This document shows positions 2,575 through 27,300 of a stretch of DNA of 64,000 bases, one piece after another. Position numbers and translations under genes: made by a program. Location: the NCBI GenBank assembly GCA_030704615.1, contig CM060732.1:34720001-34784000 (forward strand), read 5' to 3'. Origin of the DNA: Takakia lepidozioides. Lineage: Eukaryota; Plantae; Bryophyta. The first letter of the stretch is position 1, and the number at the start of each line of letters is the position of its first letter. Under the pieces are notes generated by a model that saw only the letters and a list, made by a program, of their open reading frames with translations, was not told the DNA's origin and ran no database searches.

Positions 2575-3203
2575 TGTCAAGGACGAGAATATGAAACAAG
2601 AGATCAGAGCAGAGGTACAAGACTAGACAAGAAGTCTAGGTCGGCGTGGCCGTACGATGAGTAAATATGAATCGAGATGATCTTTATAACAATGAACAAG
2701 AGTACAAGATATTGGAACACGACTTGAATACTGGAATGCTGGAAACTAGACTGGAGTATCAGATACTGGAAACTGGGCTAGAGTATTGGGAACTGGACTG
2801 GAGTACTGGGAACTGGAAACAAGAGTAGCTTGAACTGGTGTTGGCGAGACTGAAGAGTGTCCAGTCTCGCCTCCTATATATACTGGCTACTAAGAAGCTT
2901 CCCTAAGAAGCTTCCCCTATGGAGGTTTCTTGCTGGAGAAGTTTCCAAGATTAAACAAAGGTTTCTTGATGGAGAAGCTTCCTTAAACAAATGAGGTATC
3001 TTGATGGAGAAGTTTCCTCCAAAGCTGAGCAGTTTCCCAAGTTACTCTTGGTAATTTGGTAAACTCCCGATAACTTGGTAAATAATGGTAAATCATGGTA
3101 AATCATGGTAACTTCCGGTAACATGGTAACTTCCGGTAACATGGTAACTTGGTAACTTTCGGTATTTATTCCTGGTAAGTTCCTCTGGGCTATGTCCGTG
3201 ACA
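2575..3203 (-). repeat. 5' LTR (~629 bp)
   Basis: Minus strand starts TGTCACGGAC and ends GTCCTTGACA (TG...CA, 9/10 inverted match). TATA-like TATATATAG at 2882-2874. Internal short tandem repeats at ~2730-2820 and ~3090-3165. Confidence 0.85.
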
Positions 3204-5043
3204 ATGGGTATTTTCGGATCACCACTTCCAAAAACAGACCAGATTGCATTCCAATTTGCATACGCGCTATTGGCCATAAATCCATGAAAGTTGGGATATG
3301 AGACACCATGATTTCTCATGACTCTCACAAGGGACTTCCACATCAGGATTTGAGACTCAGTGTCTGCGGATTGCATGTCACACACTGCAATTGTCAAAAC
3401 TCTTTGGTAAGAAGGATCGTACACATGGGCAGCCATGGTTGTCCAGCCCTTCACACGTTTCACATGATCAAACATGAGCCAGGATTTCTGGAGATCGCCA
3501 CTGGACTGCATTCTGCGGACCAAGCTAATTCCACTTCCCTCCGCAACTATGGACATCTTGAATAAGAACACTTTCAACGACCCCTGATCAGGAAAAACAT
3601 TGTCTTGAATGAAGTCGTACATGCTTCTCCGTTTCAATTCCAGGATGCTATCCACATAACATGTGCTCCCTGTTCCCATTCTGAGTGCGTTGATCTGGTT
3701 GCGTACATTTGGTGAACTAAGGGTCGAGAAATAGTCCATAACGACGTCCAGTTTTTCGCTGTCCAGTTTCTCTATGTTCTCTTCTGCTCCTCCTAGAGTG
3801 TGTTTTTGCAATAAGCTCTTGCTTGCATAAAGTGCAATTGCAGATGGCGGTGCATAAGGAGCATTCTCCCCCTCATGCCGTAGAAATCCCCGAATTATTT
3901 CAAAGACTTTCTCGACAATCCCCTTTCGATACGGGGTGGGTATGATTGCTGAGATGAACACAAGCTCGGGTAAGGCCGCAAAAATGATGGAGCACATAGT
4001 ACATGCGGGCCTTGCATGTGCCAATGCATGTTGGGGCCATTTTGCAATATTTGCAGAGCAACGTCGTGTTTTTAGGAGGTGGGCACCCAACCTCGAATGG
4101 GTTATCCGCGCAACCCTCCCACTCCGTCTCGTTTGGGGAGCCTCTCAATGACAGGCAGTTGCAGGCTTCATTTCCACAACGTAGGTGCCCAACGCATACT
4201 GATCTACGGAAAGACAAGCCATGAGGGTTATGTATGTTGGTTGTCTTAGTTCGACACCAAGGGTGTCCGTCGTGCTTCTTGTCCATCCCTTGCATGAGTC
4301 CCCCCAAACCTCCATAGGACGTCGGAGGTGGCAGCTCAAAAACCACATCTCCATCAAATTCTGCGGGAAGGTATTTTGCTCTTACAATATTTATTGTCCC
4401 CCATGCAATTCCACGCACGTCACTTCCGCAGTTTGGCAAGCCTTTCATAGACTACAACCTTGGAACAACACTGCATATCTCATGCACATCTGGTTCTTCG
4501 ACAGAAGATAGGTGTGTTGGAGGTGGTGGAATCTCAGAGATGTCGTCGTCACCGGAGCTTTCCGAAAGATCGACAAAAGCCGTCGATGTGCTGGTGTCCT
4601 CTTTTTTAATTGTAGCAGGTGTGAAGGCCGGAGCCACCAAAGCGGCAGTTCCTGGTGTGAGTGTAGAACCTACAGACGAACGTCGTTGATCCCCGTGCAT
4701 GCGGTAAGTGCCCGCTGGAACTCTCCATTGTCTAATACGGTCATCGCACACGAATGGCTCCAAAATCATCATACTGTCGACCCTACCGGCAGAGTCGTGC
4801 ACTTCTTTCTCCACATGCACAGTTCCAACTTGCAGATCCAAACTTCTACAGAGGACATCCTCTCCCACGGTTGCCATCCCATTGGTATCTGGCACTTTGG
4901 TGAGGGGGAACGATTTGTAAGCACAGTAGAATTTTACCAACTCTCCTGTGAGAGCCATTCGTAAAGCAGAGAAGAGTATGGGAACAGTGTCCAACAAAGT
5001 GTGCCAGCACTGGAGCAACGAGCCGTACGTCTGTGGATAGCAT
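3204..5043 (-). pseudogene. MULE-type transposase of element A (GCM/WRKY-like Zn finger and first DDE residues); stop, frameshift and gypsy insertion
   Basis: DGHPWCRTKTTNIHN...CVGHLRC...CKYC...RACVHLSNHTHP and WLMFDHVKRV. Clearly homologous to 14630-16018. Start codon uncertain. Confidence 0.85.
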
Positions 5044-6104: not shown

Positions 6105-6959
6105 AATCAACCTTGCGTGAACGCAAGGTTGATTTGCTGGTAGCTGGAATGCCAGAGTCGTGACTGACGGACAAGAAGATGATTCTCTTAAGAAAACCCC
6201 AATCAACCTTGCGTCAACGCAAGGTTGATTTAGGTGACAGACACAGACATCCGAAACAAGCTTTGCCCTTTGAATGATTGATTTCGACCCGAATTGAGTG
6301 GTCTGGTTCTCCTTTCTTTTGACGTTTGAATCTTACAGAACAACCTTGCGTTGACGCAAGGTTGTTTTGAGTGTACTGTCTATGTCTATTTTTCCCTTCA
6401 CTGTCTGTTTTCCCACCGTTGCAAATCTCACAATAAACCTTGCGTCAACTCAAGGTTGATTTGGGTTGCAGGCCTGTGCCCTTTTAAAGGGTTTTTTTGA
6501 ACCACCAAACAACCTTGTGTTGACGCAAGGTTGCTTGAGAGTCCAGCCAATGTCTCCTTTTGCCTTCACTCCCAAAATTGCTAGCCCAAGAATCAACCTT
6601 GCGTCAACGCAAGGTTGATTTGGGCTGCAGTCCAATGTCGTTTTGATGTAGTTTTTTTGAACGGTTCAAGCTCATCACACAACCTTGCGTTGATGCAAGG
6701 TAGTTTGAGAGTCTTGCCAATGCCTGTGTTTTCCTTCAATCCTACAGGTGCATGCCCAAGAAACAACCTTGCGTCAACGCAAGGTTGATTTGGGCTGCAG
6801 TCCTGTGTCCTGCTGTAGGGTTTTTTGGAACGACTGAAGCTCATCAAACAACCTTGCGTTGACGCAAGGTAGTTTGAGAGTCTTGCCAATGTCTGTGTTT
6901 TCCTTCAATCCCACAGGTGAATGCCCCAGAAACAACCTTGCATCAATGCAAGGTTGATT
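6105..6959. repeat. Array of 10 palindromes (AACCTTGCGT-NN-ACGCAAGGTT) in intron 1 of element A; the distal part is a ~169-bp tandem repeat with two sites per unit
   Basis: Central hexamers start at 6117, 6213, 6350, 6444, 6519, 6603, 6689, 6773, 6858 and 6942. An 11th site lies at 18350, beyond the B insertion. Confidence 0.95.
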
Positions 6960-6983
6960 TGGGTTGCAGTCATGTGTCATGTG

Positions 6984-6992
6984 TCCTATGTC
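6984..6992 (+). repeat. Left 9-bp target-site duplication of element B (TCCTATGTC)
   Basis: Identical to 18275-18283. A 9-bp TSD is typical of MULEs. Caveat: it lies in a 7-bp micro-repeat. Confidence 0.75.
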
Positions 6993-9671
6993 GGGGAATG
7001 CTTGTGCGTGAGCCTGGCTAGGCTCACGCCATGTCAGCAATCATCCACGTGTGTAGGTCCTAATTCCGTGCCCCCCCCCCCCCCCCCTATTACCGCGGAT
7101 CAGTTGTCACCTATGTCCCTTTCATCGCCCCCACATGAATATTCTTTCCAACCGAGAACAATGGTAGGTTTGTGGATGGTTTAGGATCGAGGACATGATT
7201 TTTGAATGAGGAGATCGCCCGCTAGAGAATTGAATATTAACAACAAACCCCTTTTTTTGCAAAGTAGTTCATTCATTCCAACCCACAAACATTTTCCAAT
7301 GCTGGAATCTGAAGACCCACCCCAGGCAATCCCTAACTGTACTTACGGGAACGCGCGAAGATCTTGAGAAACAGTTTGGGATGGAAGCAAAACCAAAATA
7401 CATTTTATTAAGTCTCGGTACTTGAACCTCAAGAACTATTGGAGGTTTCAGAGGAACTACTTCCAGAGTCTGCAGCAATATCATCTATGAACACAGCAGC
7501 CCCTCCTTGATGTTTTTTTTCTCCACGACCCCCATGGAGAGGCAAATACATTGTTTGTCGGGACAACACCCGTGCACAAGCTTCCGGGTAAACCGGCAAG
7601 CGGTAAGCTCTAGGGGGACTCGGCGACATGTAGTATCCTTGGAAATCGAAAGGTGTCTGCGTATTCGATGACGCCTGCCGAACTCTGGAAAGCAAGAAGA
7701 GGAATGGTGGTAGATGTTATCATCCAGAAATAGACAATGTAAGCAACCATCTGTCGAATGGGAATGACACAATGAAATGCAACATATTTTGCACGACTAG
7801 AGCCGAACTTACTCACACTCAAAATCGGAGTCCACGTCGAGATCCTCGTCAGGCGCTTCGGGCTCCTCTAGAAGTTCCTCCGTGGATGGGGCAGAAGTAG
7901 TGCCCGACTCAAGCTGATGAAGCTCGCTTGAGAAGAGCTCCGTATCAGCCTCCATGCCGAAGAAGTGCCTTCTGGCGCTTTTGCACGCATGAAAAGATGC
8001 TCCTGCAAATCGAAGATGAACGAGAAATCAAAACAGGGCTTCCCTAAGCTCACTGCCCACATTTCAAACACAGCGTTCAGGGCCCCACCTGTTCCCATAG
8101 ACAAGTCAACCACTCGTCCACCGTGATGGCTGCATGTCTCCACCAAAGTCTGCATGAAAGCTCGAAATTTCTCCCATGCACCTCTCCAAGGGACACCAGT
8201 CGACCTTTTTGTGGTTCGACCCGAGTCCACATAATTGAAGATTACATCATCCTCCACTGGCTCACAGGTGGGGTCAATGTGAGCTTCAAGGTCCCTCAAC
8301 TGGAACTCAGCAATACCAAGAGTGTCCTTACGCACCCTCACCAGGCACAAAGCTTCGAACACCCGAGTCTGTCAACAATCACGAAGAGAGCATGAGGCAA
8401 AAGACAAAACCAATTTTTGACATGTACATCAGAACCACTAAACTTTAATTCAAAGGAACCAACTCACTTTCTGCCCCGGGAACTCGCCCTTCGTAAGAGG
8501 CAGAGTGTTGATGCATGTCCAAGTTTTGATGACACGAAACCCGGAAGCTTTCATGTAGCTGAAAAGAGTTCTCCGTGCCGACATGTCCTTTGACTGCATG
8601 AGAAGAAGAGCACCCGAGTCAGAAAAGAATTTGTTGCTGAATGAGAAGGCCCACTGCCAGTAACGAGAATCCGATTTGTTCCAAGTGGGGGTTGAATTGG
8701 AAGGCAACACATCAGGGACAGGGAAACCGTCAAGAATGTGCAGCACCATAAGGTCAGTCGTGTATGCCTGCTGAACTCCATTCACCCAATCCGGCCTTTT
8801 TGTGACCTACAGCCAAAAACATGGGACAGTGTCACAAGCCCAATCTTGATCCAACAAGAAATCAATCCCATCGACAAGCTAGAACAAGTTGCCAAAACAA
8901 AATTATTCACACAACAGTTAAGACATATGTGCTTACCTGAGTGAGGAACGAAACAAGCATGTCCCATGATTTCGAGGGCACCCCTTTGAATGTAGACTTC
9001 CTGGATTCCATCATTGCCAGAAAACTTTCATTCACCACCTTACGATGGAACTGGCCCAAAACCCTGGATGGATGGTCTCTCGCATCGAAAGGCTGCTCCC
9101 TCGACTTTGTTGTTCTCCTATCCCTCCTAGTTGGAGAAGGCTGTCTTTCAGCGACCTCTGACGGGCCCTGTTCCTGCGGAGCTGCACTCTTCCCCTTCCC
9201 CTTCGGATCCCCGACAATCTTCCCCTACCGTTTTGGAGTAGCAGATTTCTCAGGCTCTTTTGCAGCAAGAGCAGCAATGATTCTGTCCTAAATGTCTTTG
9301 TCAGCCAGTGGGGCAAGTGTCGCGGCGTTGTCGTTAAGGTTTCTCAAAACAACTTCATCGAATGGTGTGTCCTGTTTTGGCAGATCGAGGTACCACCCAC
9401 AGTCTCTGAAGTGCGCCCTGCTCCAGTCTCTGGCAATACTAGCCGTGTACATTGTCTTGTCATTGGAGGGGTCAACCCACGAGTAGATGAAGTCTGGGTC
9501 ATCGCTAAGGTACTTTCCCGGTATGAGGACATGATACATATACCTGAATGACACACACACCCAAAATCCAGACAGTCAATCGATCTGATCAGGACACAGA
9601 TCACACATCACGAGAAGTGTATTGGCATGCAGGTCAATAACACTGATAAACCAACGTTTGAAAGCCCGATT

Positions 9672-10433
9672 CAACATTGCGTTGACGCAATGTTCATTCG
9701 AACTGAAATGGAAAACATCAAATTTGGAGAACGGCACTTTCAACAAGCACGTACGAGAGGGAAAGCCCATTATCCTAAAACATCTCATGCACAACATTGG
9801 AACCACAATCAACCTTGCGTTGATGCAAAGAAGATTGGCGGATACACCTATGATAATGTAGCATTGAAAGAGACAGTGCTTGGCAACGGAATTCAACATT
9901 GCATCAATGCAAGGTTGTTTTCATTAACAGAGAAAATGGAAAACAGTGATTGAAAAACAACATCCGAATATCTGCTGGTATGGATATTCAACCTTGCGTT
10001 GACGCAAGGTTGAATTCCTCTGCTGAAACACCTGTCCAGGGTATTTTTGATACCCTTAACTTTCCTACAATTGTATGGAAATCGGGGTATTTTGGCGGGA
10101 TTAATCTAGCAATCCATACCGTCAAACAACGTTGCGTCAACGCAAGGCTGGTTGATGGTACAGTGTAAGCTCTAAACAACATTTCAAACAGACTCCAAAC
10201 CGACTTTAAGTTCATCCTGGCAGCATTGCAACTGGAAACCACAAAAAAAACAGCCCTAGAACGAAGGAAAACCTACACAACCAGGCCCTTCATCAACCTT
10301 GCGTTGACGCAAGGTTGATTTTCCTGTCAATTTTTGCCCTTTCACATGCAGAATAACGACTTCATTGGATACCCCAGGTACATGAAAGTGAAACCAAAAC
10401 AAAGGGATACAAGCTTGCGTTAACGCAATGTTG
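9672..10433. repeat. Seven palindromes in the large middle intron of the element B ParB-MTase gene
   Basis: Centres at 9681, 9819, 9903, 9998, 10136, 10303 and 10419, with unique sequence between them. Confidence 0.93.
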
Positions 10434-12321
10434 CTCGGCTGCACGTCCAGAGCCTTCATAGCTCCCTGAAAACCTCCGAATTCGCAGTACTACATGGAAA
10501 AAATGAAACAAGAATACAGAAACATACACTTCAAGTACCAGAATTGTTTCTTGGAGGTCACACCTATACAACACTCGTTTCATTGCTTGCTCGCTGTTGT
10601 ATTGGTTTTTCAATTCGTAGGACCTGGAGATTCATTTTTCTCTCTCAAACTCCCTGAAAAAACAGTTGTTCCAGACAGCGAGCTTCCATCTCCTGATATA
10701 GGCCTCCAGTGTGATCCGGGGGCAAGACATCTGGATTTTGTAGTCTGCCATTGACTCCCCAAGTGCAGTCACCGCTCGTTTTTCCAATTGCAGCAAAAAA
10801 GATCATAAGAATTGTGGAGAGAGCACGAAGCAGCTCAAGCATTTGAAAATGGTTTTGTGGAAACTTTATTTGGCTCCATACGGTTGCTTTGTGTAGCCAC
10901 TGGTCGAATGTGTGGTCGCTAACAACTTTTATTGCTTGTGTCTTGGAGTTCCTCTCAGGAGATGGGAACATGTTGGTGTCTCTCACAAGTGGATCGGAAT
11001 TCCAGATCTCCAACCACCTGATTTTGGTTGCATTGTCCACCATTGAAATGGAAAGGCGATGCAGTTTCTCTAGGTCATCTCTGGCTTTGAGCCATACTTG
11101 TCATAATGTGCTTTCACCTGTTCCAGAAATTCTGTGCCAAAACTTGGATCTGCTATGCGGATTTGTTTGTCGAACGCACTCATGAGGTTCTTCCTTTGAT
11201 TGTTCATCTCGAATTTCATTATGTCCTCGAGCCTAGTAGCAGACCTCTGCTCTTCTGTGTGGGAAGCATAGTACTCTGATTTCGCCTTCAAACCAGTTTC
11301 TGCTATTTCTTGCTGCATACATTACAGGGAGAAAGAATCAAACACTGCCGTTTCTTGATAAAATTTGCAGTAACAACAATCAAACATATATCAAGAAGCA
11401 TACCGTGTACATGTAGTCAAGAAAAGCCTCCCTTGTCAGGCTGTACCATGTGCTTGTCTTCTTTTCAGCACACCTCTTCATCTGCTGAGGACTGAGCACA
11501 TTCGTGAATGACTCCAGTGGCATCAGCCCTATCTTCTGGATACGGAATAGAGTGTGGCAGAGATTTGTCGTCACATAGGAGGTTTCATTGGACATGAAAA
11601 AACCTTCAACTCATAAGATGATTTCTAATTGTGCAAACGCAGATCGGAACGGGAACAATGTTGGTAACTTACTTGTTTATGTCGTGCATGGCTGTCAAGA
11701 GTTGCGTGACACATCCTTTGTGGTCGAGTACCATGGAAAACACGCTCCAATGCCATTCGATCTCGTCCAAGTGCAAGCTTGAAATGTAATCTATCCAGGC
11801 AAGCAGTATATGGTTCCCATCCCAGACAAAAAACATCTTTCCCATAAACGCTTTTGTGGAGGCCTTTTTGGACAGCTTGAACTCAAACTCCCTGTTTACA
11901 TCCCGCCAGCATGCATCCCAACTTCGCTCTGTCTCCACTGTTACAAGACACTCCTCTCCTTTCGTGTTCACAGTGGATACATAGAACACAGCAGATCCCT
12001 TGACATAGCTGTGAACAAAATTGTTCTTCAACTTCGTGATGTCGTTCCTCAATGCGGGTCGAACCGCGGGCATGGAGATCATCCTGCATAGTGGGATAAC
12101 CAGGTTTCCGCCGGGAACCTCCATCGACAGAATCACCTTCGAGGAGTTCACTTTCTGCCCACCCATAACCTCCTCGGCCTTGTCTTCATAGTGTCCCTCA
12201 AATGACTCCTCCTCACCATCACCTTCTGCCACTTCCGCATCTCCCCCCACGGATTTCCTTTTTCTTTTCCTCTGCACAAAATGAATATCCCTGTGAGTGA
12301 CAGATTGAGCTCCCATGGATC

Positions 12322-12890
12322 TACCTTGCGTTGACGCAAGGTTGATTGATGGGGATGCAACTTAGTCTGAAATGCATACAGTCCATTGAACCAACTAAAT
12401 GCTTTGCGTTGACGCAGGGTTCTTTCGGTGGCTTCAGATAATCGACTTTCCCTACTTTGCGTCTCCTAGTGCGAGACTTCAGATGCAGAGAGTGGCATCA
12501 GAATCAGCCTCGCGTCAACGCAAGGTGATTCGAGTGTTGAATCTGCTTCATGTCACCTTCTTAAACAAACGCTTTGGAGGTCGACATCAACCTTGCGTTG
12601 ACGCAAGGTTGCTGTGGAGCTCTCAGATTGGTGTTCAACAAACAAAAAAATCACATGGAAAGGCACATTGCAACTTATGGTTTCTTCTTGGCACTGTATG
12701 ATGCACCGGGAGCATCAATAGTTCCATGGCTGCCAGGCGTTTAGGGTTTGTGGTATTGAATAGAAAAGGCACACGAATCAACCTCATGTCAACGCAAGGT
12801 TGATTCGAGTGCAACATCTGCACTCGTTTCATGCCCAGAACATACACTGTGGAGGTCGACATCAACCTTGCGTTGACGCAAGGTTGATGT
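12322..12890. repeat. Six palindromes in intron 1 of the element B ParB-MTase gene
   Basis: Centres at 12330, 12408, 12514, 12597, 12788 and 12872. The intron runs 12949-12272 on the minus strand. Confidence 0.93.
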
Positions 12891-14091
12891 TGACCTCTCT
12901 GATGAGCATGGAACAGACAAAAAAAAGGATAAAGAGGGTGGATAGTCACCTCCGGTTTCTTCTTTGCACTTGATGATGCTCCTAAGGCATTCAGCTTCTC
13001 CATGGGGTCTGGAGGCAGCATACTTCCAAGGAGGTCCTGGTGGTGCGAAACAACGGCAGACGGTATGGTCTCTGTGTCCATCTCTCCTCCCTGCTCTCTC
13101 AAGACCTGGTTCTCCACTTGTAGTGCTTCCTCCCGAGCCCAGCTGACTTCCTCGCCCTCCCCCCCTTCAATTGGAGGTTGCTCTTCGGTCGCCTCCGGGA
13201 TCACTTGAAGACCTTCCTCTCCAAACAGTGGTTGCAGAATCGGGTTTTGGCATTCGTCCTCATCTCCGCCGGAGGTTTCCTCTCCCATTATAAGTTCCCG
13301 TCTCGCCTTCCTCAGCCTCTCCTTAGCGCGTACCCTTTGCTTGTTTGATGTGAAGTAAAGTGTTCTTCGAAGTTTTCTTCTCCCTCGGGATATGGTCACC
13401 GTCTCTACAGAATCCAGGGTTGCAAAGACAATATGGAGAAGAAGGAAAAAAGGGGGCTACGGTTGGTTCAGTGCAAGGCCTTCCACGCCAAGATGATCGC
13501 TCGGAACAACCTGTGTGCCACATGCTCATTCCACATGCATGGCAAACACGTGTCCATCTAACCGTTATGTATATCTCCGGAATTTTTTTTTTTCTCATCC
13601 ACCGAAATTCGTTCGGGTCCACCTCTCATCCAAAAAAGTTCATTGATGAGTAATAGCTTTTTGGATGTTTCAGAGGAATGTGAAGTATGTACAGTTGTAC
13701 AGCGGTGCAGGTGCCGTTAAAATTGAATGGAAATGGGCATCTCATCTGGAATCTCTGACATGACAGGCAAATGGCGGCTCTGTCAGTGAATCTTGCTGAG
13801 TTGGTTTTCCAATGCACTGGTGGGGCACCTCTGAGAAAACAGTTGCATTCTTTGATTAGGGCTGACATTATCCACTCCGCATTTGGGCACTCTGCAACCG
13901 TCCACTTGGTTCGCATGGGGACACATTTCTACGATGTGCCGAACCGCGTTAGGAGACCTGCAAGCGGGTGCGACACCTGCAACTGTGTGTAAGGACGTCA
14001 TCTATACAGCCAAAAAACTCCGCTCTAGTACAACCTGCAATCAGAAGCAACGTCGGACTGTGAACTGTTCGTTTTGAAGCAACATTGACAG

Positions 14092-17000
14092 ATGGCCTCC
14101 CAGCCCATGGGCTCCCTTGACGCGGACTTCTTCAGTGAGGACCACCCTATCCCCTTTTCTTATGAGGTGGAAGATGACGGTTTTGCGGTGGTGCATGAAC
14201 ACGTGCTCGCAACGTAGTTTCGGTTGGAAAATGGAACTCTATTCCTTGAAAGGGAAGTTTACGATGCCAATGGAAAACTGCTCAAGTACGCGTTCCAGAA
14301 AACCTTCGCATACTGCACCAACCACACAATGGAGAGTGACTCCAGGCAGATACAGGGTGCTCAGTGCTCCTCGGAGACAGTCTGCAGGATCGTTCGTTAC
14401 TCCTAGCACGGCATCATCAGTGGCCCAGGAGAAAACACCCGTGGTTGTCAAGAAGGAGTCAAGTACCGTTAACATTGTAGTTGAGCTTTCGGACTCATCC
14501 TCCGATGACGCCTGTGAAATACTGCCCGTGGATCAGCCATGTCCACATCAGGAAGCAGATGCGGAGGAGATTACCAGTGTCATTCCTAAACTGAAAGCCA
14601 TGGGTGGGATGGCATGATTCAAGAGTGAGTTGAGGGGGATTGACTGGAGCACTTTCAATGTTCAGAGGGTGGCATTCCTGCCGGAATCTTTTGATGGTAA
14701 TACTGTTTTTGAGCTGCCTCCTCCTAGTCGCGTTGGGGGCATTTCCAGTCTCATGGAAGGAATGGACAAAAAGAACGATGGGCACCCTTGGTGCCGCACA
14801 AAAACCTCCAATATTCACAACCATGACAACCTCATATTCAGGCAAACAGTCTGTAATGGGCACCTGAAATGCGAGAACGTGAAATGCAGACACTTCGCAT
14901 TGTCGGGTGTGCAAAACCAAAGCGAATGGGATGGTGTCAGTGAGAATCCATTCAAGCCTGGTGTGTCACCTCCATACAGTAACACTTTTGTGTGCAAGTT
15001 CTGTAGGGTACCGCCTTGCTGCCTTACAATGTGTGGCGCCAGAATGTACTATGTGGTGCATCGATTCAAAACCCTGACTAGAGCCTGTGTCCATTTCGGT
15101 TTTCACAACCACCCTGTGTCCAAGGGGGATTACAGGGAGAGCGTTGAGACAGTCTCGCGTCTGATAAGGCAAGAGTTGGATACCAATCCAACTGGAACCA
15201 CATCTGCAATTGCCATGGGGGCGAGCAAGTCCTTTCTGGAAAGCCATATTCTGTGTGCATCGGATTCGGTTGGAGGAAAACTAGAGGGACCAGCTTTGGA
15301 CACTGTTATGGACCATTTCTCGACTTTGACTTCTCCAAACATTAGGAATCAGGTGAACGCTTTAAGAATGGGCTCTGGGAGCCGAGGTTATATGGACAAT
15401 ATTATGGATTTGAAGAAAATGAGCATGTACGACTACATCCAAGACAACGTTTTCCCGGGGCAAAGAGCCAGGAAAGTGTTCCTATTCAAAATGTCCATAA
15501 AAGGTGAGGGCAGCGGAGTCAGCCTGGTTAAACGTATGCAGAAGGGTGGCGATCTAGGCAACTGCTTCCTTATGTTCGATCACGTCAAGAGGGTTAAAGA
15601 CTGGACCACAATGGCATGTCATGTTTACGACCTTGTGTACCAGCGTGTCATGACAATTGCAGTGTGTGACATGCAGTCAGAGGACACAGATTCACAGCAG
15701 CTCATGTGGGAAGCTCTCATTCGTGTTATGGCCTCCAATGGTCTCCCATCTCCCAATTTTGGTGGTTTCATGGCCGACAGTGCTCAAGCTAACTTCAACG
15801 TTGTCCGCATTGTATTCGGGACGGGAGATCCAAAAGTGCCAATGCCTGGAAGAGAACGTACGTGTCTTTTCCATTGGACACAATCCTTGGATAAACACAC
15901 AAAGGCAGACATCAAGCCAGATATGCAGAGTATGCAACGTCAACTGTGCAAACAGTACAAAGACGCCAAAACTATGGGGGAAGCGAATACATTGTTCCAG
16001 ACAATTCGTGCCTGGTGATACTCATCTGGAGCGGCATCGGAGGACAGCATGAGGGCACTGGAAGACTGGTTTGCATTTTGGCACTTCCGTTACCGACAGT
16101 GGGGAGCGGCCATGACAACGGTGAGCGGTTTGCATTCACCTTCCTTTGGGTGCTTCGGATATATCTTTCAGGGTCCCATCCTAATATCGGCTTTGTGTTT
16201 TTTTGCCTTGCAGCATATGTCCATTGAGGAGATGGCGGACATGCTGTCTTGCAATCTAGCGGAGACAGTGCACAATGCCTGGTTGCAGCAATCCGGCAAA
16301 AATGGAAGAGATTTGTATGCGGCTACGGCCGATGACCTTATCCGTGCTCTGCAGCAGCAAACCAGATACATGTCATTCTTGAGGGGTGGCCTTGGAGGCA
16401 AAGGCCCGGACAGGAGCGAGTTGATGTTGCGGGCAGCCAGAAGATCGGGAGATCCCAGCAAAATAGCGCGGGCAGTGCGCATATGTGCAGATGGCACCCC
16501 TCTCGTGGTAAGAGTTCCCCATCTGGAAGGCGAAGAGAGATTTGGGTCTTGCAAACGGAAATTGGATACCCCTCCCGGATCGGATGCAGACTCCCATAAA
16601 GCGGACAGGGTCAACTTCTCGACGCCACGTGTTCCCTTGGATCAGAGATGGAATTGCGGAACATCCACAGGTGAGGGCCATTCTGCCCCAGACCGGACCC
16701 TTGCATCAAGCACTATCACTGCAATGGTTGAAAACTAGAACGTGGTGCAGCATGTAATAGAGTCCATGTGCTTGGACGAGCTTTGGCATATAGAACACAC
16801 AAGTGCTAGATCGCATGTGAAATGCGCGGCGATCAGGGCCACCAATCATGAAAAATGTACATCATTAATATCCAGAGGAAAAGAACGCACTGCAGCTCCT
16901 ACATTCACTGGTTTGTTTCTCCCTTACGGCCAAGGAGAGGCAAAGAACCACAAGTTTTGGTTTTACGCTGACGATTGCGGGAGATGTGTGCGTGGGACAA

Positions 17001-17596
17001 TGAGGCCCTCCGTGGTGCGGAAGCCTACTCCACCAACTGTGTGGACTGTGAAGATGGGCATAGGTCTCACTCACCAAGAGATCGCAATGCTGGAAGAGGC
17101 GGGTTTCTCCCTAGCCAGACATTCCATTACACGTGAAGGTGCTTCAAGTACAAGCGGTTCACGGGTCCCTCCGCCTGACGCTCACTTGTGGCCAACCAGA
17201 CGGAATGGGAAGCTGGTTCGACGATTCCCTCCAACCGCATAACACTATGGCAAAATCGAGTCCGCAAGAATGATTCACGCTCGTGTTGCGGGAACAATGG
17301 AAGTGCCTGATCCAGGGTATGGTCGGGTCTTCACCATAATCTCATCCACATCTGCGCTGCAGGACAAGACGTACGACATCACTGTTTCCAATTTTCCAAA
17401 TTGTACCTGTCCTGATTTTGTTGGTATGCTTTCAAGTAGTTTGGGAAAGAGAGGGAAGTTCATACCGTGCAAACACCTTTACTTCGTCTTCTTGAGAAGG
17501 ATGGTTTGTGATCCAAAGCGGGACTTCTTCATTCACCAAGCCACTATGAGTTTCAACGAAGTCAACACACTTCTACAGCGAGATACAAACCCATAG
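14092..17596 (+). pseudogene. MULE-type transposase of element B: GCM/WRKY-like Zn finger, DDE core, C-terminal SWIM Zn finger
   Basis: ORFs 14117, 14630, 16049, 16742 and 17270 are all in one frame, separated only by single stop codons. Catalytic pattern FDHV...ADSA...CLFH...NLAETVH. SWIM CTCPDF...CKHLYFV. Predicted 93-nt intron 16121-16213. The 5' end is uncertain. Confidence 0.9.
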
Positions 17597-17796
17597 AAAG
17601 CATTCACTTGACACTCCGAAATCTGTGTTTTCCTTGACTACAACTTGTAATGGAATGACTGTTCAAGTCCAGTGTCTCTCAATGTATGTCGTTTAACATC
17701 TTTGCTATGCGTGGATCAATGCATTTGTCGCATTGGTCTGTCATTCTGTTTTCATGAGCAAGCACAAGAAACTACCTTCAGATAGACAGATGATCA

Positions 17797-18032
17797 AATC
17801 AACCTCGTGTTAACACGAGGTTTACTTGGAGTTTTCCAAATCCCCCTTGTGCCGACACAAGGTTGATTTTAGTTCTAAGAAAAGAACGTCGTGTCAACAC
17901 GAGGTTGATATGAAGTTCTCCGAATCAACCTCGTGTTGACACGATGTTGATTTTAGTTCCAGGAAAACAACCTCGTGTTAACACAACGTTCATTTCAGTT
18001 CTAGGAAATGAAGCTCATGTTAACAGAAGGTT
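17797..18032. repeat. Six variant palindromes (AACCTCGTGT-NN-ACACGAGGTT) with an exact 42-bp period, downstream of the B transposase
   Basis: Centres at 17809, 17851, 17893, 17935, 17977 and 18019. Confidence 0.92.
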
Positions 18033-18149
18033 GAACTCCAGGAAAGCCCGAAACCCTTCATCCGTTTCACCTTCATGTGGTGATATCAGCAGTTGGGGGC
18101 CCCACGGTTATAGGCCCACCTTCTTTGTGGTGATGTGGCATGACCTGGA

Positions 18150-18274
18150 CCAGGCTCATGCCATGTCAGCATCAGCGCCACGTCAGCTGCGCGAGCGTAG
18201 GCTCACGCCACGTCATCATTGTGTGAGCGTACGCTCACACGCTCACGTGCCAGGCTCACGCGGTAGCGTCGTTG
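18150..18274. repeat. Element B right subterminal region and TIR with repeated GCTCAC/GTGAGC motifs
   Basis: Multiple GGCTCACG and CGCTCAC copies. The same motif occurs at 7005-7030 and 23465-23512. Confidence 0.75.
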
Positions 18275-18283
18275 TCCTATGTC
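18275..18283 (+). repeat. Right 9-bp target-site duplication of element B
   Basis: TCCTATGTC, identical to 6984-6992. Confidence 0.75.
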
Positions 18284-18493
18284 CTAAGTCCTGGCTAAGT
18301 CTGTATTTGCCTTCATTTCCATTGTTGCAAGCCCCACAAACAACCTTGCGTCAACGCAAGGTTGATTTGGGCTGCAAACCAAGGGTCATTTTGATTTGTC
18401 GCAAGGCTGTTTTGGGCCATGCAACTGCATGTTTATCTGTAATTGTGTTCAATACTAGACTTCATGACTAATAGATCTTCCGGTTTTTTACAA

Positions 18494-21400
18494 AGGAAAA
18501 GGAAAAGGAAAGAACCTTCCAGAGACGGAGCAGAGGCAGAGTATGAAGATGATGAAGAAGGCGATGACGAACATTACGCAGACAGAGCATAGGCTGTTAT
18601 CGGGGGACAGAAGGTGAACTCTTTGAAGGTAATCCTGTCAATGGAAATTCCTGGTGGAGATCTCCTTATCCCACTGTGCAGAATAATATCGATGCCTGCT
18701 GTCTGGCCAACACTCATAAACGACATAAGGAAACTCAAGAATGATTTTGTGCATGGGTATGTGAAAGGTTCTACGGTGTTCTATGTTTCCACAACTGACA
18801 CAAAGGGCGAAGAGTGCCCTGTATTAGAAGAGATAGAGGAAGGTTGGGATCCATGTTGGCGTGAAGTTAACAGGGAGCTCGAGGCCAAACTATCCAAGAA
18901 GGCTTCCACGAAAGTTTTCATGGGGAAGATGTTTTTTGTATGGGATGACAATCACCGGTTGCTTGCCTGGATGGACTACATATCCGAATTGCACTGTGAC
19001 GAAAAGGATGGGCACTGGAGCGTTCATTCTATGGTCCTGGATCACAAAGGACGAATCACACAACTGCTCACTGCCATGCACGACATCAACAAGTAAGTTT
19101 TCCGAAGTTGTTGTGCATTATGTGATTGCATTGCTCTGTTTGTGGTTGTTTTCTTCTTAATTGGCAAAGTGACTGTTCAATGCAGATCAAACGAAACCTC
19201 CCACGTAACAACCAACCTTTGCCACACCCTTTTCCGGGTCCAAAAGATCGGTATGATGCCACTAGAATCGTTTGTGAACGTGTTGAGTCCAAGTCAAATA
19301 AAGAGATGCAGGGAGAAGAAGCTCGTTACCTGGTATAGCCTGACAAGAGATGCATTTCTTGACTATATGTACACGGTAAAGAAACTTAAGCCGAATTGAA
19401 ATTCAGACTAGTTTGTTCCCTCTATTCAATGGATGTGAACTGAATGATCCTATATTTTGGATTTTTTGCAGCAAGAGATAGCGGAGACAGGCTTGAAGGC
19501 AAAGGCCGAATACTACGCCACTCACGCAAAGGAGGAGAGGTCTGCTGTGGGGGTGGTGGAGGCAATCCGGTTTGAGATGGATAACCACAGAAAGAACCTG
19601 CTGAGTGCGTTTGACAAACAAATCCGCATTGCAGATCCCGGTCTCGGATCAGAGTTCCTGGAGCAGGTGAAAGTGCACTACGACAAGTATGGAACTAAAT
19701 CCGCAATGACACAAGAGAAACTGCATCGCCTGTCCATTTCAATGGTGGACACCGCAACCAAAATCAGATGGTTGGAGATTTGGAACTCGGATCCTCTGGT
19801 GAAGGACACGTATGGGTTTCCAAGAAAAGATAAAGACCCCAAAACCAATGTGATAAAAGTGGTGAGCGACCACTCCTTCGACCAATGGCTTCACAAAGCT
19901 ACATTCTGGAGCCAGGTGAGAGAAACTACCCATTCATTCTTGCAGTCTGCATTTTTCCATAATTCCGTGTTGCTTGGCTCCATAGCCTCACATTTGCCTT
20001 GTTGGGACAGTTGGAGAAGCGTGCTATTGCAGCACTGGGAGAGTCTTTGACTGACTACAAAATCACCATGACAACACCAATCTCTCTTGAGCAATACATT
20101 CGAAGATGGAAAGGTGCTATCTGGAACAACTGTTTCTTCACGGAGTTTGAAAGAGACAAAGACATTTCCAGGTCGAATGAGTTCAAGAATCAGTACAATA
20201 GCGAGCAGGCTATGAAGCAAGTCTTGTACAGGTATCATGTTTCTTCATTGCGTCTTTTCGTGGTTGTGTTTTTCCTCCTCGAATCAATCTTATGTTGTTG
20301 CAAGGTTGTTTTGGGACTGCTAATGTGAGGCTACTCTGATAGTCTGCCGTTCCTTTTCCAGTCACACTTTAACCTTACGTCAACGCAAGGTTGATTTGGG
20401 CTCATGAACACATTTCTGTTTGTTGTATGCTACTTCTCCAGGCATGTTCCAACCTTGCGTCAACGCAAGGTTGGATGTAGGTCCTGTAGAACAGTGTTTT
20501 TCGAAATTTCTCTGCTTGTAGAAGTACATTTTCCGTTCATTCTCTTCTTCTCCACTGTCTCTTCGTTGCAAATTCTGCTTCTCAATATTCATTTTACAGA
20601 CTGATTTCAACCTTGCGTTAACGCAACGTTGTTTGAGGCTTGATTTTAGCTGCACATTTAAGTTATACTTCAATGCTTTGTTCAGCCTTGCGTTGACGCA
20701 AGGTTGTTCATTGCTCGTAATAGACCAATTTTGTGTTTTCATTGTTGGTTTTGGCAATTGGTTGGGATGCCTCAAACAACCTTGCATCAATGCAAGGTTG
20801 ATCGAGGTACTTTGTTTTTCCAGCTTCTTTGTGTCTGGTGGACAATGGCCTTCACTAAATTGTTCATTTGGGTGTGTTTTCCAAGTACATATACCATGTC
20901 CTCATTCCCGGCAAGTACCTCAGTATGAACCGGATTTCATTTTCATGTGGGCGGACCCCACTAAGGACAAGACAATGTACACTGCGGGAATTGCGAAGGA
21001 CTGGGGCAGGGCGCACTTCAGAGATTGTGGCTGGTACCTGGACTTGCCGAAACAGGACACACCGTTCGAGGAGGTGGTCATGCGCAACTTCAATGACAAT
21101 GCAGCAGCTCTTGCACCACTCAGTGACAAGGAAATTCAGGAGAGAATATTTCAATCCCTCGCAGCAAAAGATCTGGAGAAAAATAGCACTCCCAAACGCA
21201 AAGGGAAGGGCGCAGGTGATGGGAAGGGTAAGGGGAAGATTGTGGCTGGGCAGGAACAGGCTATGCAAGACAACTCGCAAGGACATGAGAACTCCAAAAA
21301 CTAAAGAACAGCCTTACGAGGCCAGAGAGCACCCTTCTCGTGTTTTGGGTCAGTATGAAAGTGAGGTGATTAACGAGAGCTTCTTGGCAATGATGGAATC

Positions 21401-22572
21401 TAGAAAATCCACATTCAAAGGAGAGAGATCGAAGACTTGGGACATCCTGGTTTCTTTCCTCACAAAGATACCCACACAAAACTTTGCCTGGTGTGTTTTC
21501 CACTTTGTTCAAGATTATGTTATGCTCCTAACTGGTCTATTGTTTTTGTTATGTGAAACAGGTCACCAAAAGACATGAATGGGTGAATGGAAGCCACCAA
21601 GTGTACGCAACAGAGCTGGTGGTGCTGGACATTCCAGATGGTCTGCCTGTGCCGGACGTCCTCCCATCGAACACAACGCCATCGTGGAACAAGTCAGATG
21701 CCCTTTTTTGGCAGTGGGTTTTTTCCTTCAGCAACAAATTTTTGTCTGATGCAGGAGCACTTCTTCTTTTGCAGTCAAAAGACATGCTGGCGCGCGAAAC
21801 CCTTTTCAGTTACATGAAGGCTTCCGGATTTAAGGTAATCAAAACATGGACGTGTATCAACACTCTTCCATTTTCCAAGGGAGAGTTCCCAGGACAGAGG
21901 GTGAGTTCAGGATGGTGGACTGCCTCTTCTGGTAATTTCATTCTGTTGAGTTCATTAAGCATGTTCAAAAACTGAATGTTTGGGGGGGGCAATGCAGACT
22001 CGGGTGTTCAAGGCTTTATGCTTGGTGAGGATGCGAAAGGACACCCTCCCTCCCGGTATTGCGGAGTTCCAGTTGAGGGACCTTGCAGCACACATCGACC
22101 CCACCTGTGAGCCTGTGGGGGACGATGTCTTGTACAATTACGTGGACTCCGGGCGGACCATGAAAAGGACGAATGGTGTCCCTTGGAGAGGTGCTCGGGA
22201 GAAATCTCTAGCATTCATGCAGACTCTGGTGGAGACTTGCAGCCGGCATGGGGGGCGGGTGGTGGACTTGTCTTTGGGAACAGGCCTGTCCTGCCAAGTC
22301 TCCTGCTCTGTCGTATCTATGATCTTGAATTTTGTAATGATTCTTGGTTTTTTAACCTTTCGTTCTGTGCATTTGTAGGTGTAACATTCCATGCCTGTAA
22401 GAGCGCCGGTAGACACTTCTTCGGCATGGAGGGGGATGCGGAGCTGTTTTCATGCGAGATTCAACAACTCACCTCCGGCTTGGCATCAGCCCCACACAAG
22501 GAAACAGTTTTCGACGAAAGGGAACTTCCAGATGAAGACCTCGACGTGGACTCCGACTTTGAGTGTACATAA
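18494..22572 (+). pseudogene. Exons 2-9 of the element A ParB-like + beta-class DNA methyltransferase-fold gene
   Basis: ParB box MFFVWDDNHRLLAW (~18929-18970). Motif IV-like LVVLDIPDG (DIPD at 21628-21639). EKSLAFMQTLVETCSRHGGRVVDLSLGTG (motif X/I, ~22200-22285), then TFHACKSAGRHFFGMEGD. GT-AG introns include 19093-19185, 19376-19471 and 19916-20010. Premature TAG at ~18589 and two CAG>CAA acceptor mutations. Confidence 0.82.
20284..20802. repeat. Five (plus one degenerate) palindromes in the large middle intron of the element A ParB-MTase gene
   Basis: Centres at (20294), 20379, 20459, 20617, 20692 and 20786. The intron starts at 20232. Confidence 0.9.
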
Positions 22573-23454: not shown

Positions 23455-23524
23455 ATGAGTATCTTTCCGCTCACGGATTGGCATCTTCCCGCTCACGTGA
23501 GCCGCTCACGGACTAGCATCCCCC
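23455..23524. repeat. Element A right terminus (TIR with GCTCAC repeats)
   Basis: CCGCTCACGG...CCGCTCACGTGAGCCGCTCACGGACTAGCATCCCCC, homologous to B's left end. Confidence 0.78.
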
Positions 23525-24346
23525 TGAAGGTTGCTTTAAACCGTAAAGCGCCTTCACCAGTCTGCAAACCTGGTTGGGGTGTTCTTCATCAATGAAACTG
23601 GCAGGCTGCTCAAGATAGATCTCTTCATCTATCTCACCATACAAGAAGGCCATGCGAACGTCAAATTGCGTTATATCCATGTCTTCCGCTGCAGCAATGG
23701 ATAAAATAGTGCGAATGGAATCGAATTTTGCCCCAGGACTGAAAGTTTCTGTACAGTCCAAACCTTATTTCTGGGTGAATCCTTTTGCGACAAGCCTGGC
23801 TTTGAAACGACCCACACGTTCATCGGCAACAAGTTTGACTTTATAAACCCATTTGGAACGGACGACCTTCCTTCCTTTGGGTAGCTCTTGCAAAATCCAA
23901 GTGACATTCTCTAGGAGAGAATCATATTCTTCTTGCATGGCAGCAATCCATTGCTGGCGCTCAGGAGAATTCACGGCGTCATCGATGGTGATTGGCTCGA
24001 TTGGTAGATAGCCGGGTGGGAGTTGAGTGGTCGTGACATTGCATGTGTAGCTTCCTTTTCCAACTGGGACAAACCAATCGCCATAGCGAGATGGGGGTTG
24101 GCGGGAACGAGTGCCGCGAGCCTTTGGAATAGTGTCCTGCAGATTTTGCATGGGTTGCATGGCATGATCTCCCATAATGGTTGGATCAACAAGATCAATG
24201 CTCACTAGTTCCTCAGCGCGCAGGATGTCATCTTCGCTTGACTGTGTGAAGGGGATCGGAGTCAGCGACTCAGGACTGTCTGGCGCCACAACTGGATGTC
24301 TTCGGTTCGGGTGCTTCCTCAATAACATGCGGTAGTAGGTCTGCAT
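23525..24346 (-). mobile_element. Ty1/copia pol fragment (post-integrase linker and RT N-terminal part), cut by element A
   Basis: W..AM.EEYDSL..N.TW.L..LP.GRK....KWVYKVK...RFKARLVAKGFTQ; QFDVRMAFLYG; VCRLVKALYGLKQ ends at the element A TIR. Confidence 0.92.
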
Positions 24347-27300
24347 GACCAGCTCCCACTACGGGTGGAGCACCTTGGAGGATGTATGCACATGAACTTA
24401 CTGGGATAAGATTGTCTAAAACCAGTCGTAACTTGATGTACTGGGCTCTCATCTCAGCATCAAGGCACATACGATCCCACTCCGCGGTCTACATGGTAAT
24501 GTCATTTTGTTAGCAAAATCATCACAATATTATTAGATATAACCAATGATACATCATAGTCATATAATATATGTCGATAATGTCAATTAGTCCAAATGTT
24601 ACCTGACCTATTGTTGCATCCGATCCTCCTCGACCAGCCCCTTGCGCCGTACGCAAGTTCTTCATGTCTCTGTGCTTTCTCTCTAACACCTCGTTCTTCA
24701 TACGACCAATAGTGACCAATAGTGACACCTTCAGGCAATAGTGCAGCAATCTGACCCGCATGTGCACATTGTACGTGAATATATGACGTCACCGTATCTC
24801 TTATGACCATGGATGCATGCCACATGAACTCATTGCACAAGAAACCAATACTGTGCGAACCATACAAAATATTAGAACTATGGTTCATGGAATAGCATCC
24901 ATCCATCCACTAAAATAACAAAAGACAGTAAGCCAAAGTACTTATCCTCTCCAATAGGTTCAGTGCCTAGCGGCCATGGATCATAACGCTGTTGTAGACG
25001 ATCACACCGCTTGTAAATGTCCCACATTTGCTGAGTATGATGAAAGCGCCGTGGAGTCGGTAATACGTCTATGACATGTACCCATTATCGTTCATGTTTA
25101 TTTGTTAAAAATACATACATGTTGCAAGACATAATTTAAAAAATATGAAAATCAGTATGTCACATGCGGAAATTAGATATTTACCAACAAAAACTCTGAA
25201 TGTTGTGCCAATATCCTGTCGGAGATGGACCCGTGTGATTGTCCATATAGAATATCATAGTACTAAGTGTCTTTGTATGTATGACTATCCACTCGACAAC
25301 CGATCCAGAATGGTGGCCCCTATATCCAAGTCAATGAACGTTCAACATTAGGAACACACTATAATGTGAAGAATTGAATTTCTTCTGAAAATATAATTAT
25401 GATAAAAGACAATGTACAATATATTCCAATAATATCCAAATATCTCACCGTCAAGATGTTGTAAATGTGTGTGGAACGACTTGGGCCCTCTCGAAGAGGC
25501 ATTGTTTTGTCAGTTTTATATGCTATCCTCTGTACATGTCGCATCATCTTCACAACTGTACGAATGATGGCATGTCGTGCACAATAGGCTAGTCCACTCA
25601 TCGGAGGCAGAGTCACCTACATTGCATGTGAATAGATTTTATCAATTTAAATGACACGACTGTGACGACACATAAACGATTCATGCCGGACAATCAATTC
25701 ACATTATACAATTTTATTTTATTCTGGTATGAGATAAAAAACAAATTTAAATAACATAATAGTATACTATGACAATGACTTGGGGTCCACACAACTTTGA
25801 ATGTTTAGCAATGGACATATCATATGGAACCCTTTGAAGTTAGAGGCCATTGACAATAAATATATATTAATAGAATAAAAATGTACAACCATAGTAATTA
25901 GAGATTATCATGTATATTATTTCAATTCATAATTTGGTTGAACATGACTAGGCTCGGAGCTTGTACATTAATATACTATAATATAATAGTATAATATAAT
26001 ATAATATAATTGATGTCTCCCCAATGAAACGTAAATTATTGTGTCTCTTCACCCCCGAGATCTTACTGCCTTCCATTATGAAGATGGACACCTTTGTGAC
26101 ACCAAACGGTGGATTGAACCCACAACCACTTCCGAGGTGGTATATGTCAATTACCATGTACGTTATATTTTCTTTATGTAATACATAATGATCAAATCGT
26201 TAGGATCATTTTTTAATATTAGTATATGATTGATGAATTATTTTAAAATATTCATATCAAACATAATATTTACTAATACTCCAAAAAATTAATATCACAA
26301 CTACAAATAATGAAAGTATGATATTATTTAAGTATTGGTAATTTTAAATTAATTATGACTATTAATCAATTTAGAATTAATTATTTAGGTCTGAAGTTAC
26401 TATTTACATTAGTTACCATGAATGATTACATGAAATTCAAATTATTGGTATGAAATTCGAACACCAAAATAATGTGGTCATTGAACGCCATTGGATGACG
26501 GTTAGAAACTTACATGACAAAAGCCTATGATCGTGTGACAACGTCCCCACTCTAAATCGGGCGGGTCAGCATTAAGCTCTTATATAAGAATGCCTGCAAT
26601 ATGTCATGTAATATAATATTACATAACATAGATATTTAAATATGTTTAATAAAAATGAGTGAGTGAATCACGGGCCAAGCGGGCCGATTCCATACTGAAG
26701 GAAAAAAAAAATGCATTACAAAATAAGTTTGAAAAATTTAATCGGTGGATGATTTATCGCACCTTGAGAATACGTCGAGGAAATGAATTGGTACCAAGTC
26801 CGACCGACCAACGTCCCGACGGTGTAATGGTGTAGCCATCGTATTCCTCCTTATAATAAGGTATAATATACTATAATAACAAACATTAGAAAAATAAAAA
26901 TAAAAGTAAAAATTCAAACTAAAATACAACACAAGATAACAAGAGAAAAATGAAGGCTTATCTCGAGGACTACTCGAGAAAAGAACTTGTGCGAGGAACA
27001 AATGAGGGCTCCCCATATTTATATGTGGGATGAGCACTTAGACAATGATTGTTGGACGATGTGCGGATGATACCATGTGGATGACCTCGTGGATGAATTT
27101 CTAACAATGCGATATGGAGGTATGACTAGGATGTAGAGTAATAATTATTGATGAGAAAATGTATGAGCATGGATGAGAAATCATTATTATGAAAGCCCAA
27201 ACATGTGAGCATGGTTGACATTATCATTAAGGTAAAATAAGACAAATAAACTTGAGTGCATGACATGTGGTTGCTTAATAATGAGACTTTTGTTTTATAT

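Follow-up and report, generated by a model that had tools for sequence, protein, structure and literature searches.

Palindrome arrays in helical register within the accessory-gene introns of a MULE-like transposon from Takakia lepidozioides

Introduction

In the available text of two reports, the motifs of VANC21 form tandem arrays in the introns and other non-coding DNA of a Mutator-like element (MULE) (PMC5735166, PMC6446971). The accessible part of another report describes KorB as a protein that loads at operators, slides and acts at a distance (PMC11790492). The periodic A/T clusters (PATCs) of Caenorhabditis elegans are described, in the excerpt at hand, as acting without short protein-binding motifs (10.64898/2026.08.08.743475), and DUF3723 is listed as a conserved cargo of fungal Starships in the portion obtained of 10.1101/2021.12.13.472469. 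Here, a stretch of 64,000 nucleotides of Takakia lepidozioides DNA is described (assembly GCA_030704615.1, contig CM060732.1, positions 34,720,001 to 34,784,000 of the forward strand; hereafter the window), in which two DNA transposons of one family, elements A and B, carry arrays of a palindrome, mostly in the introns of an accessory gene. Element B (6993–18272, ends ±2 bp) is nested in intron 1 of the accessory gene of element A, and the element is MULE-like without long terminal inverted repeats (TIRs).

An initial annotation of the window had claimed that the distances between the palindromes are multiples of about 10.5 bp, and that selection keeps the sites on one face of the double helix for cooperative protein binding or looping on double-stranded DNA, rather than as RNA hairpins. 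It named no protein that binds the sites.

Palindromes are spaced in helical register

When the whole window was scanned, the 24-bp core of the palindrome, CAACCTTGCG-T-YR-A-CGCAAGGTTG, gave 37 matches with at most 8 mismatches, which were confined to positions 6108–20800. The palindrome is 24–31 bp long and has no match in the window outside the A/B element family; its arm sequence is kept in 51–59 of 60 half-sites per position. Ten sites lie in intron 1 of the A accessory gene (6105–6960) at spacings of 96, 137, 94, 75, 84, 86, 84, 85 and 84 bp, and the last palindrome of the same intron (18338–18367) lies beyond B, 117 bp from the site at 6933 after B and one copy of its flanking repeat are excised. 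Seven sites are found in the B middle intron (9669–10436; 138, 84, 95, 138, 167 and 116 bp), six in B intron 1 (12318–12890; 78, 106, 83, 191 and 84 bp) and six in the A middle intron (20282–20803; 85, 80, 158, 75 and 94 bp). The B 3' array (17797–18036), downstream of the transposase stop, has six variant palindromes at 42 bp, or four turns. Thirty of the 36 counted sites are thus within accessory-gene introns, mostly kilobases from the element ends.

On rescanning, the 29 within-array spacings listed by the initial annotation were matched exactly, and its value of 117 bp across the excised B was reproduced by deleting the 11,291 bp between the 11-bp repeat copies. All 30 values were correct, and one interval had been overlooked (20285 to 20370, 85 bp, in phase). 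With this interval added, 29 of 31 spacings lie within 2 bp of a multiple of 10.5 bp, against a computed chance level of 0.43–0.44, which agrees with the 40–45% first estimated. Two rows of a degenerate match at 18386 (8 mismatches; it lies 45 bp past 18341 and misses the phase by 3 bp), the 331 bp from 18010 to 18341 that lead from B into A, and four kilobase-scale gaps between arrays were excluded before counting. The only spacings off phase in the window are 78 bp (B intron 1) and 80 bp (A middle intron), as had been said. After tandem duplicates were collapsed, 21 of 23 spacings remained in phase (binomial p 1.7e-6; Rayleigh p 1.6e-6), and so did 17 of 19 distinct values (p 3e-5). When the sites were jittered and the period was left free (scanned over 5–30 bp), the observed value was reached in 0, 0 and 1 of 2000 trials.

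The fitted period was 10.56 ± 0.02 bp. For a stricter set of 21 spacings the mean cosine was 0.71 at 10.57 bp (V-test p 2e-6), and it fell to -0.37 at 10.2 bp and -0.38 at 11.0 bp. Multiples of a repeat unit were also worse, with mean cosines of -0.15, 0.26 and 0.38 for 21, 42 and 84 bp. A line through the origin had a slope of 10.557 ± 0.019 bp per turn (19 values, 78 and 80 excluded), and ten turn numbers were seen (4, 7–11, 13, 15, 16 and 18). In the B middle intron, which had been described as in phase throughout, all seven sites lie within 1.2 bp of one helix face across 738 bp.

Homologous spacers of A intron 1 differ by single indels of 9–10 bp (94 versus 84 bp; 75 versus 85 or 86 bp), and the 9-bp insertion of the 94-bp spacer sits in the middle of the spacer. 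This array ends in a tandem unit of 169 bp that holds two sites whose cores alternate in orientation; the unit equals 16 turns, and 94 + 75 and 84 + 85 both give 169. The asymmetric core (TCAA versus TTGA) tends to alternate between adjacent sites, strictly so for 6204–6933. The usual site reaches about 38 bp with its conserved flanks, so that 42 bp is near the tightest possible packing. Within the window the shortest spacing class is 42 bp and the next is 75 bp, and no spacing of 53 or 63 bp was found. The variant arms of the 42-bp array read CCTCGTG, a symmetric change of the palindrome (CCTCGTG..CACGAGG). Sites 6933, 9894 and 20777 share an identical symmetric double CpG change (GCA..TGC) that leaves the palindrome perfect, a hint that one arm has been converted by the other or that the variant is tolerated.

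The spacers carry an AA/TT periodicity in the same register

AA/TT dinucleotides in the palindrome-masked spacers oscillate at about 10.5 bp, with maxima at half-turns from the site centres and minima at whole turns. Among 17 spacers (tandem duplicates, the 42-bp array, both off-phase intervals and positions less than 21 bp from a centre being excluded), the maxima lie 26, 37, 47, 58 and 68–69 bp from the nearest site centre. Fourteen of the 17 spacers agree in sign, and the observed value was reached by none of 5000 random-phase nulls. Dinucleotides of A or T only (WW) peak at 0.51 turn and those of G or C only (SS) at 0.98 turn. The AA/TT signal persists on both sides of the sites and in nine spacers without detected mutual homology (p 0.0002). 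With the sites masked, the best period of the B middle intron was 10.5 bp (rank 1 of 181 windows), while B intron 1 and the whole A middle intron showed no 10.5-bp peak by themselves. The AA/TT peaks do not stem from hidden decayed palindromes, the best match in a spacer being only 12/22.

Because the signal is in register with the sites, the introns can be read as bendable tracks that hold the sites in one rotational register. In nucleosomal or bent DNA, A/T dinucleotides occur where the minor groove faces inward. By this rule the central minor groove of each site would point outward from the bend, and outward-facing sites would remain accessible when the chromatin DNA is curved or wrapped, which would permit joint binding.

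Spacings in other copies and selection for phase

Other copies of the family were read in contigs from five public runs (two samples, two studies), in which the element family is multicopy and variable. The window's 78-bp spacing is 84 bp elsewhere, through a 6-bp insertion at 12377 in three of four runs, and a diverged counterpart of this spacer is likewise 84 bp long. The 80-bp spacing is 94 bp in one contig and 96 bp in another (at least five insertion rows, summing to 16, among the rows listed). Both off-phase spacings of the window are therefore in phase in other copies. Further in-phase alleles are 105 bp, produced by duplication of 11 bp at the edge of a site, and 126 bp, in which one site is lost. 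Several diverged pieces (8–25 substitutions) retain 75, 85 and 94 bp with 0–1 gaps. Indels among copies have sizes of 1, 2, 3, 6, 8, 11 and about 16 bp, so that mutation alone is not quantised.

The phasing is likely kept by selection. This part of the earlier claim stands on the one-turn indels, on the off-phase pair that is in phase elsewhere and on the non-quantised indels among copies, and the phasing itself is real and belongs to double-stranded DNA rather than to RNA hairpins. Its extension to cooperative binding or looping may hold but is not singled out by the data: the spacers have their own in-register periodicity, which is matched no less well by an intron that is wrapped or rotationally positioned as a whole than by loops between pairs of sites.

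The accessory gene encodes a ParB-like and methyltransferase-like protein

The accessory gene is transcribed divergently from the transposase gene, and 522 homologues were found at E <= 0.001. Of ten homologue clusters looked up, five carry species names, which are Riccia sorocarpa and two Adiantum species. The ParB/Srx-like exon lies at 11672–12274 on the minus strand in B, where the box reads GNH-I (family motif [DE]GNHR), and at 18593–19093 on the plus strand in A, the two exons being 78% identical. A model of the Riccia homologue P0304, built from 102 sequences, is confident over residues 150–325 (predicted local distance difference test, pLDDT, mostly >90). Five chains of the ParB/Srx N-terminal fold matched this same domain with modest Z-scores of 6.0–7.9: KorB (Z 7.9, root mean square deviation 2.7, 95 residues aligned), PadC (7.4), pNOB8 ParB-N (6.6), SerK (6.2) and Srx (6.0). 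The top Foldseek match was ParB bound to cytidine diphosphate (ParB-CDP; prob 0.97, E 0.064). In an alignment set gathered by similarity to the query, the [DE]GNHR box is conserved at G (90/100), N (100/102), H (94/102) and R (81/102), and a downstream Asn, N322, at 81/90, which gives the family a GxxR-type box followed by Asn. These residues would be equivalent to R117 and N146 of KorB. Both window copies have one substitution in the box.

The methyltransferase-like exons are at 7868–8806 (minus strand) in B, where the motif IV region is followed by motif I, VVDLSMGTG, and at 21562–22570 (plus strand) in A, with DIPD as motif IV and VVDLSLGTG as motif I (tblastn E 0.002). Motif IV precedes motif I, which is the order of beta-class N6A/N4C enzymes. 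The B exons gave weak matches to a PHROG DNA methyltransferase (E 0.0065) and, by tblastn, to Riccia P0343 (E 0.016). Pfam gave no match on the methyltransferase-like exons of the window, where the PHROG matches were also weak. The profile PF01555 matched three of four Riccia proteins (E 9e-6 to 5e-5; full-length P0342, 5e-5). The PF01555-like domain at the C-terminus of P0342 weakly matches the last exons of the window (E 0.002–0.1), and Atlas feature matches at 0.95 carry PF01555. Searches of PDB sequences gave nothing significant, and NCBIfam nothing meaningful. The Atlas features of Riccia P0283 placed DUF3723 clusters first (0.95–0.96; family in 17–51% of members). DUF3723 may be ParB-like; the link, drawn from feature ranking, is a lead, and one that may also bear on the function of DUF3723.

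Interpretation of the phased sites

The palindromes are tentatively read as self-recognition sites at which the accessory protein, ParB-like and methyltransferase-like, would dock and act in anti-silencing as in VANC/VANDAL; the chance that this is correct is judged to fall slightly short of even. A binder encoded by the element suits the data because the conserved 24–31 bp palindrome is confined to the element family in the window. The two-fold symmetry of the site suggests that the accessory protein would bind each palindrome as a dimer. Dimers would sit side by side at 42 bp, and bridging or wrapping would be expected at spacings of at least 75 bp. The protein would load, spread or bridge along the element and then mark or shield it like VANC, and the methyltransferase domain may serve as a DNA-binding module instead of an enzyme. 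Selection would remove copies with sites out of register. A wider proposal, which is unlikely on present evidence, is that transposons of seed-free plants possess a eukaryotic parS/ParB-type system, in which a cytidine triphosphate (CTP)-gated clamp fused to an amino-methyltransferase fold would load at exposed palindromes, spread, and mark or shield self, with the related fungal DUF3723 Starship cargo doing the same job.

Several results weigh against the docking-site reading. On the protein side, the fold Z-scores are below 8, a level that the tool calls common; P0304 is only about 29% identical to the window exon, and a single-sequence model of that exon had a pLDDT of 32. None of eight aligned members of the accessory family matches Pfam ParB. 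The Atlas neighbours are ParB_N clusters with a helix-turn-helix (HTH) but fall below the bar, and the helical region of the P0304 model has mixed confidence, and an HTH in the accessory protein is at most tentative. The PF01555 matches, at 23.7–26.2 bits, are under the cut-off of 26.7. The canonical catalytic motif of N6/N4 methyltransferases is (D/N/S)PP(Y/F/W); here motif IV is DIPD in A, HILD in B, DLPT in Riccia and DVPF or DFPI in Adiantum, and is thus non-canonical in all homologues seen. On the DNA side, the AA/TT oscillation has little strength in B intron 1 (-0.04) or past the outermost sites (-0.035). CpG is depleted in element DNA (observed/expected 0.56–0.76) and in the spacers (0.49), so that any protection from methylation would be incomplete. 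New spacing lengths in other copies, hand-read among the best-supported rows listed, follow the register more loosely: six of nine lie within 2 bp at 10.57 bp (V-test p 0.03) and five of nine at 10.5 bp (p 0.049), with 110, 71 and 87 bp missing by 2.4–4.3 bp and 118 bp by 1.7 bp. This count omits ±1-bp variants (168, 95, 93), alleles identical to those of the window, alleles in which a terminal site is broken or lost, and joints without known intervening sequence.

A mechanical origin of the register is possible but doubtful. Here a PATC-like curved or nucleosome-positioning track would come first and the palindromes would follow its register, outward-facing sites alone being usable by any binder, possibly a host factor, with no need for cooperativity. 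The AA/TT periodicity that is present with sites masked and the opposite placement of WW and SS maxima speak for it, as does the nucleosome-repeat size of the 169-bp tandem unit and of the sums 75 + 94 and 84 + 85. In addition, the excerpt on C. elegans states that intronic 10-bp A/T tracts shield from silencing and originate from Helitron minisatellites (10.64898/2026.08.08.743475). Against this, the site spacings do not fit 10.2 bp, the AA/TT signal fades beyond the outermost sites, and a conserved palindrome found only in the element family suits an element-encoded binder. This explanation overlaps the docking-site reading and differs from it mainly in the identity of the binder.

It is improbable that the sites are internal transposase enhancers, phased sites being bridged into a transpososome that offsets the missing long TIRs. 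The transposase does have a large Cys/His-rich region, one array (the 42-bp array) lies about 240 bp from the right end of B, and selection on helical phase is known for transposon-derived DNA from the internal eliminated sequences (IESs) of Paramecium, as far as the available text of PMC3464196 goes. The position of the sites argues otherwise: most are intronic and far from the ends, B has no 24-bp palindrome within 230 bp of either end, and the left end of B and the right end of A have none within 2.6 kb. The element termini instead carry a separate repeated motif, GCTCACG, which would suit the transposase.

Decidedly improbable is a phasing that arose as a by-product of mutation, through descent from a unit of 42 or 84 bp, register slippage between the TCAAC repeats that the palindrome contains at a distance of 11 bp, or a transcription-coupled bias as proposed for PATCs. 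The modal spacing is 84–86 bp, tandem duplication is evident, one allele is the 11-bp duplication at a site edge, and mutational bias has been proposed, in the part seen of 10.64898/2026.08.08.743475, as the source of 10-bp periodicity in Helitron minisatellites. Ten different turn numbers, the mid-spacer position of the 9-bp insertion, the many other indel sizes among copies and the lack of decayed sites in the spacers all speak against it. Register slips of 11 bp, or a 21-, 42- or 84-bp unit, were rejected as a general source of the phase on their poor period fits.

That the palindromes are pre-mRNA hairpins, for splicing control or as a source of small RNA, with incidental spacing, is very unlikely: most of the sites are intronic, G-U accounts for 14/37 non-Watson-Crick arm pairs on the sense and 8/37 on the antisense strand, and four double changes preserve pairing, but hairpins predict neither the DNA-helix phasing nor the AA/TT periodicity, 23/37 sense-strand departures are true mismatches, three of the four double changes fall at CpG positions, the arm sequence itself is conserved, and Rfam gave 0 matches.

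The locus offers a natural helical-twist experiment in a plant transposon, with spacing and bendability both tuned to 10.5 bp across 700–800 bp, and such tuning is known in few eukaryotic elements. It points to sequence-specific self-recognition from bacterial-type parts (ParB and N6/N4 methyltransferase folds) in liverworts, ferns and the host. If the docking-site reading is true, the system would be a second independent answer to the VANC problem, namely how a transposon protects kilobases of itself. A defined site and a candidate protein are available for direct tests, with a possible route to DNA marks other than 5-methylcytosine in plants.

Structure and surroundings of the elements

The B transposase gene (14078–17596, plus strand) encodes a Cys/His-rich region, a MULE-like D..D..CxxH core and a C-terminal SWIM finger (PF04434 E 1.4e-5, above the cut-off); this copy is defective because of four in-frame stops. 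MULE transposases are DDE-type enzymes with CxxH after the second Asp. D487, D553 and C582xxH585 hardly vary among 20 homologues and resemble this pattern, but no position could be assigned to the catalytic Glu, and the Pfam MULE profile had no match to the transposase. In total 194 transposase homologues were gathered, with many conserved Cys and His. A GCM/WRKY-like label for the Cys/His region obtained no support from Pfam. The A transposase remnant (3170–5042, minus strand, left limit approximate) is divergent from the accessory gene and left-truncated, and a Ty3/gypsy-like remnant appears to have truncated it. Retrotransposon remnants, Ty3/gypsy-like and copia-like, lie on either side of element A (1–2900 and 23525–24400).

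Target-site duplications of MULEs are 9–11 bp long. Element B is flanked by 11-bp direct repeats (6982–6992 and 18273–18283, both plus strand), likely a target-site duplication of this size from a single insertion. The B ends lack a long TIR, as non-TIR MULEs do, share only a 13-bp subterminal match and carry their GCTCACG motifs subterminally; the right end of A (23460–23524) has the same motifs and the same GCAT-CCCC terminus as the corresponding end of B. Inside the left end of B, a sequence (GTTGTC-A-CCTATGTCC) nearly repeats the flanking 11 bp (compare window 7103–7119 with 18270–18285). The insertion site itself shows a 7-bp tandem pattern, and the target choice of B may be sequence-guided.

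Protein-based locus scans of viral contigs and genome contigs found no relatives, nor did tblastn against phages or an extended protein search among 170 candidates. A palindrome scan of viral contigs gave 0 matches. In metagenome contigs, six stretches had a palindrome match, each one a lone site with no array, and were regarded as unrelated. Two of these contigs (L002 and L006, 6001–6022) share one identical site-like palindrome, probably an unrelated prokaryotic operator. Elsewhere in the window, one host gene has 303-bp repeats (32062–33422) and another 96-bp repeats (51844–52163), which by their patterns resemble pentatricopeptide (PPR) and late embryogenesis abundant (LEA) repeats, respectively, and agree with a land-plant host.

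Comparison with known systems

The CTPase clamps ParB/parS, Noc/NBS and KorB/OB share with the accessory protein a ParB/Srx-type N-terminal fold and a GxxR-like motif, and they likewise have multiple palindromic sites dispersed over a mobile element. In contrast to these clamps, the host here is a eukaryotic transposon, the site is longer and a methyltransferase-like domain is fused; the likeness to ParB comes from fold and sequence. We know of no helical phasing of many sites at parS or OB. ParB-linked DNA-modifying enzymes of phages, according to the available parts of PMC4738411 and PMC13229309, also combine a ParB domain with a modification enzyme in mobile elements. No ParB-methyltransferase fusion in a land-plant transposon is listed in the part obtained of a survey of eukaryotic adenine methylases. 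Neither the arrays nor such an accessory gene of land-plant DNA transposons was described in open-access full text; Repbase, most subscription journals and supplements were outside this scope, and they could affect how new the element family is.

The introns resemble PATCs in their roughly 10-bp A/T signal, transposon origin and proposed protection from silencing, as far as the excerpt of 10.64898/2026.08.08.743475 describes them. The periodicity here has a moderate amplitude and is weaker than in PATCs, and a conserved palindrome is locked to its phase, where PATCs are described as lacking such a motif. In Paramecium IESs, the obtained text of PMC3464196 describes helical-twist selection on protein-contact distances, with a gap after the shortest class as seen here. 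Those sequences are excised and have a 10.2-bp period, whereas the present sites are internal, many per element, and follow 10.56 bp.

VANDAL21/VANC21 of Arabidopsis, in the accessible parts of PMC5735166 and PMC10398659, is a Mutator-like transposon with an accessory gene, and its motifs spread by tandem duplication through non-coding parts that include the introns of the accessory gene itself, as is observed here. The VANC21 motif is described there as a 9-bp non-palindrome in one orientation; here a 24–31 bp palindrome stands in helical register on periodic DNA. A term search for spacing or periodicity returned none in the text available of PMC10398659. The accessory protein is ParB-like and methyltransferase-like and has its named homologues in Riccia and Adiantum, and is therefore unlikely to be a member of the VANC family. 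By analogy, the element would work most like VANDAL/VANC, but with a different motif and a protein that looks unrelated. The arrays are a real and non-trivial feature of this element.

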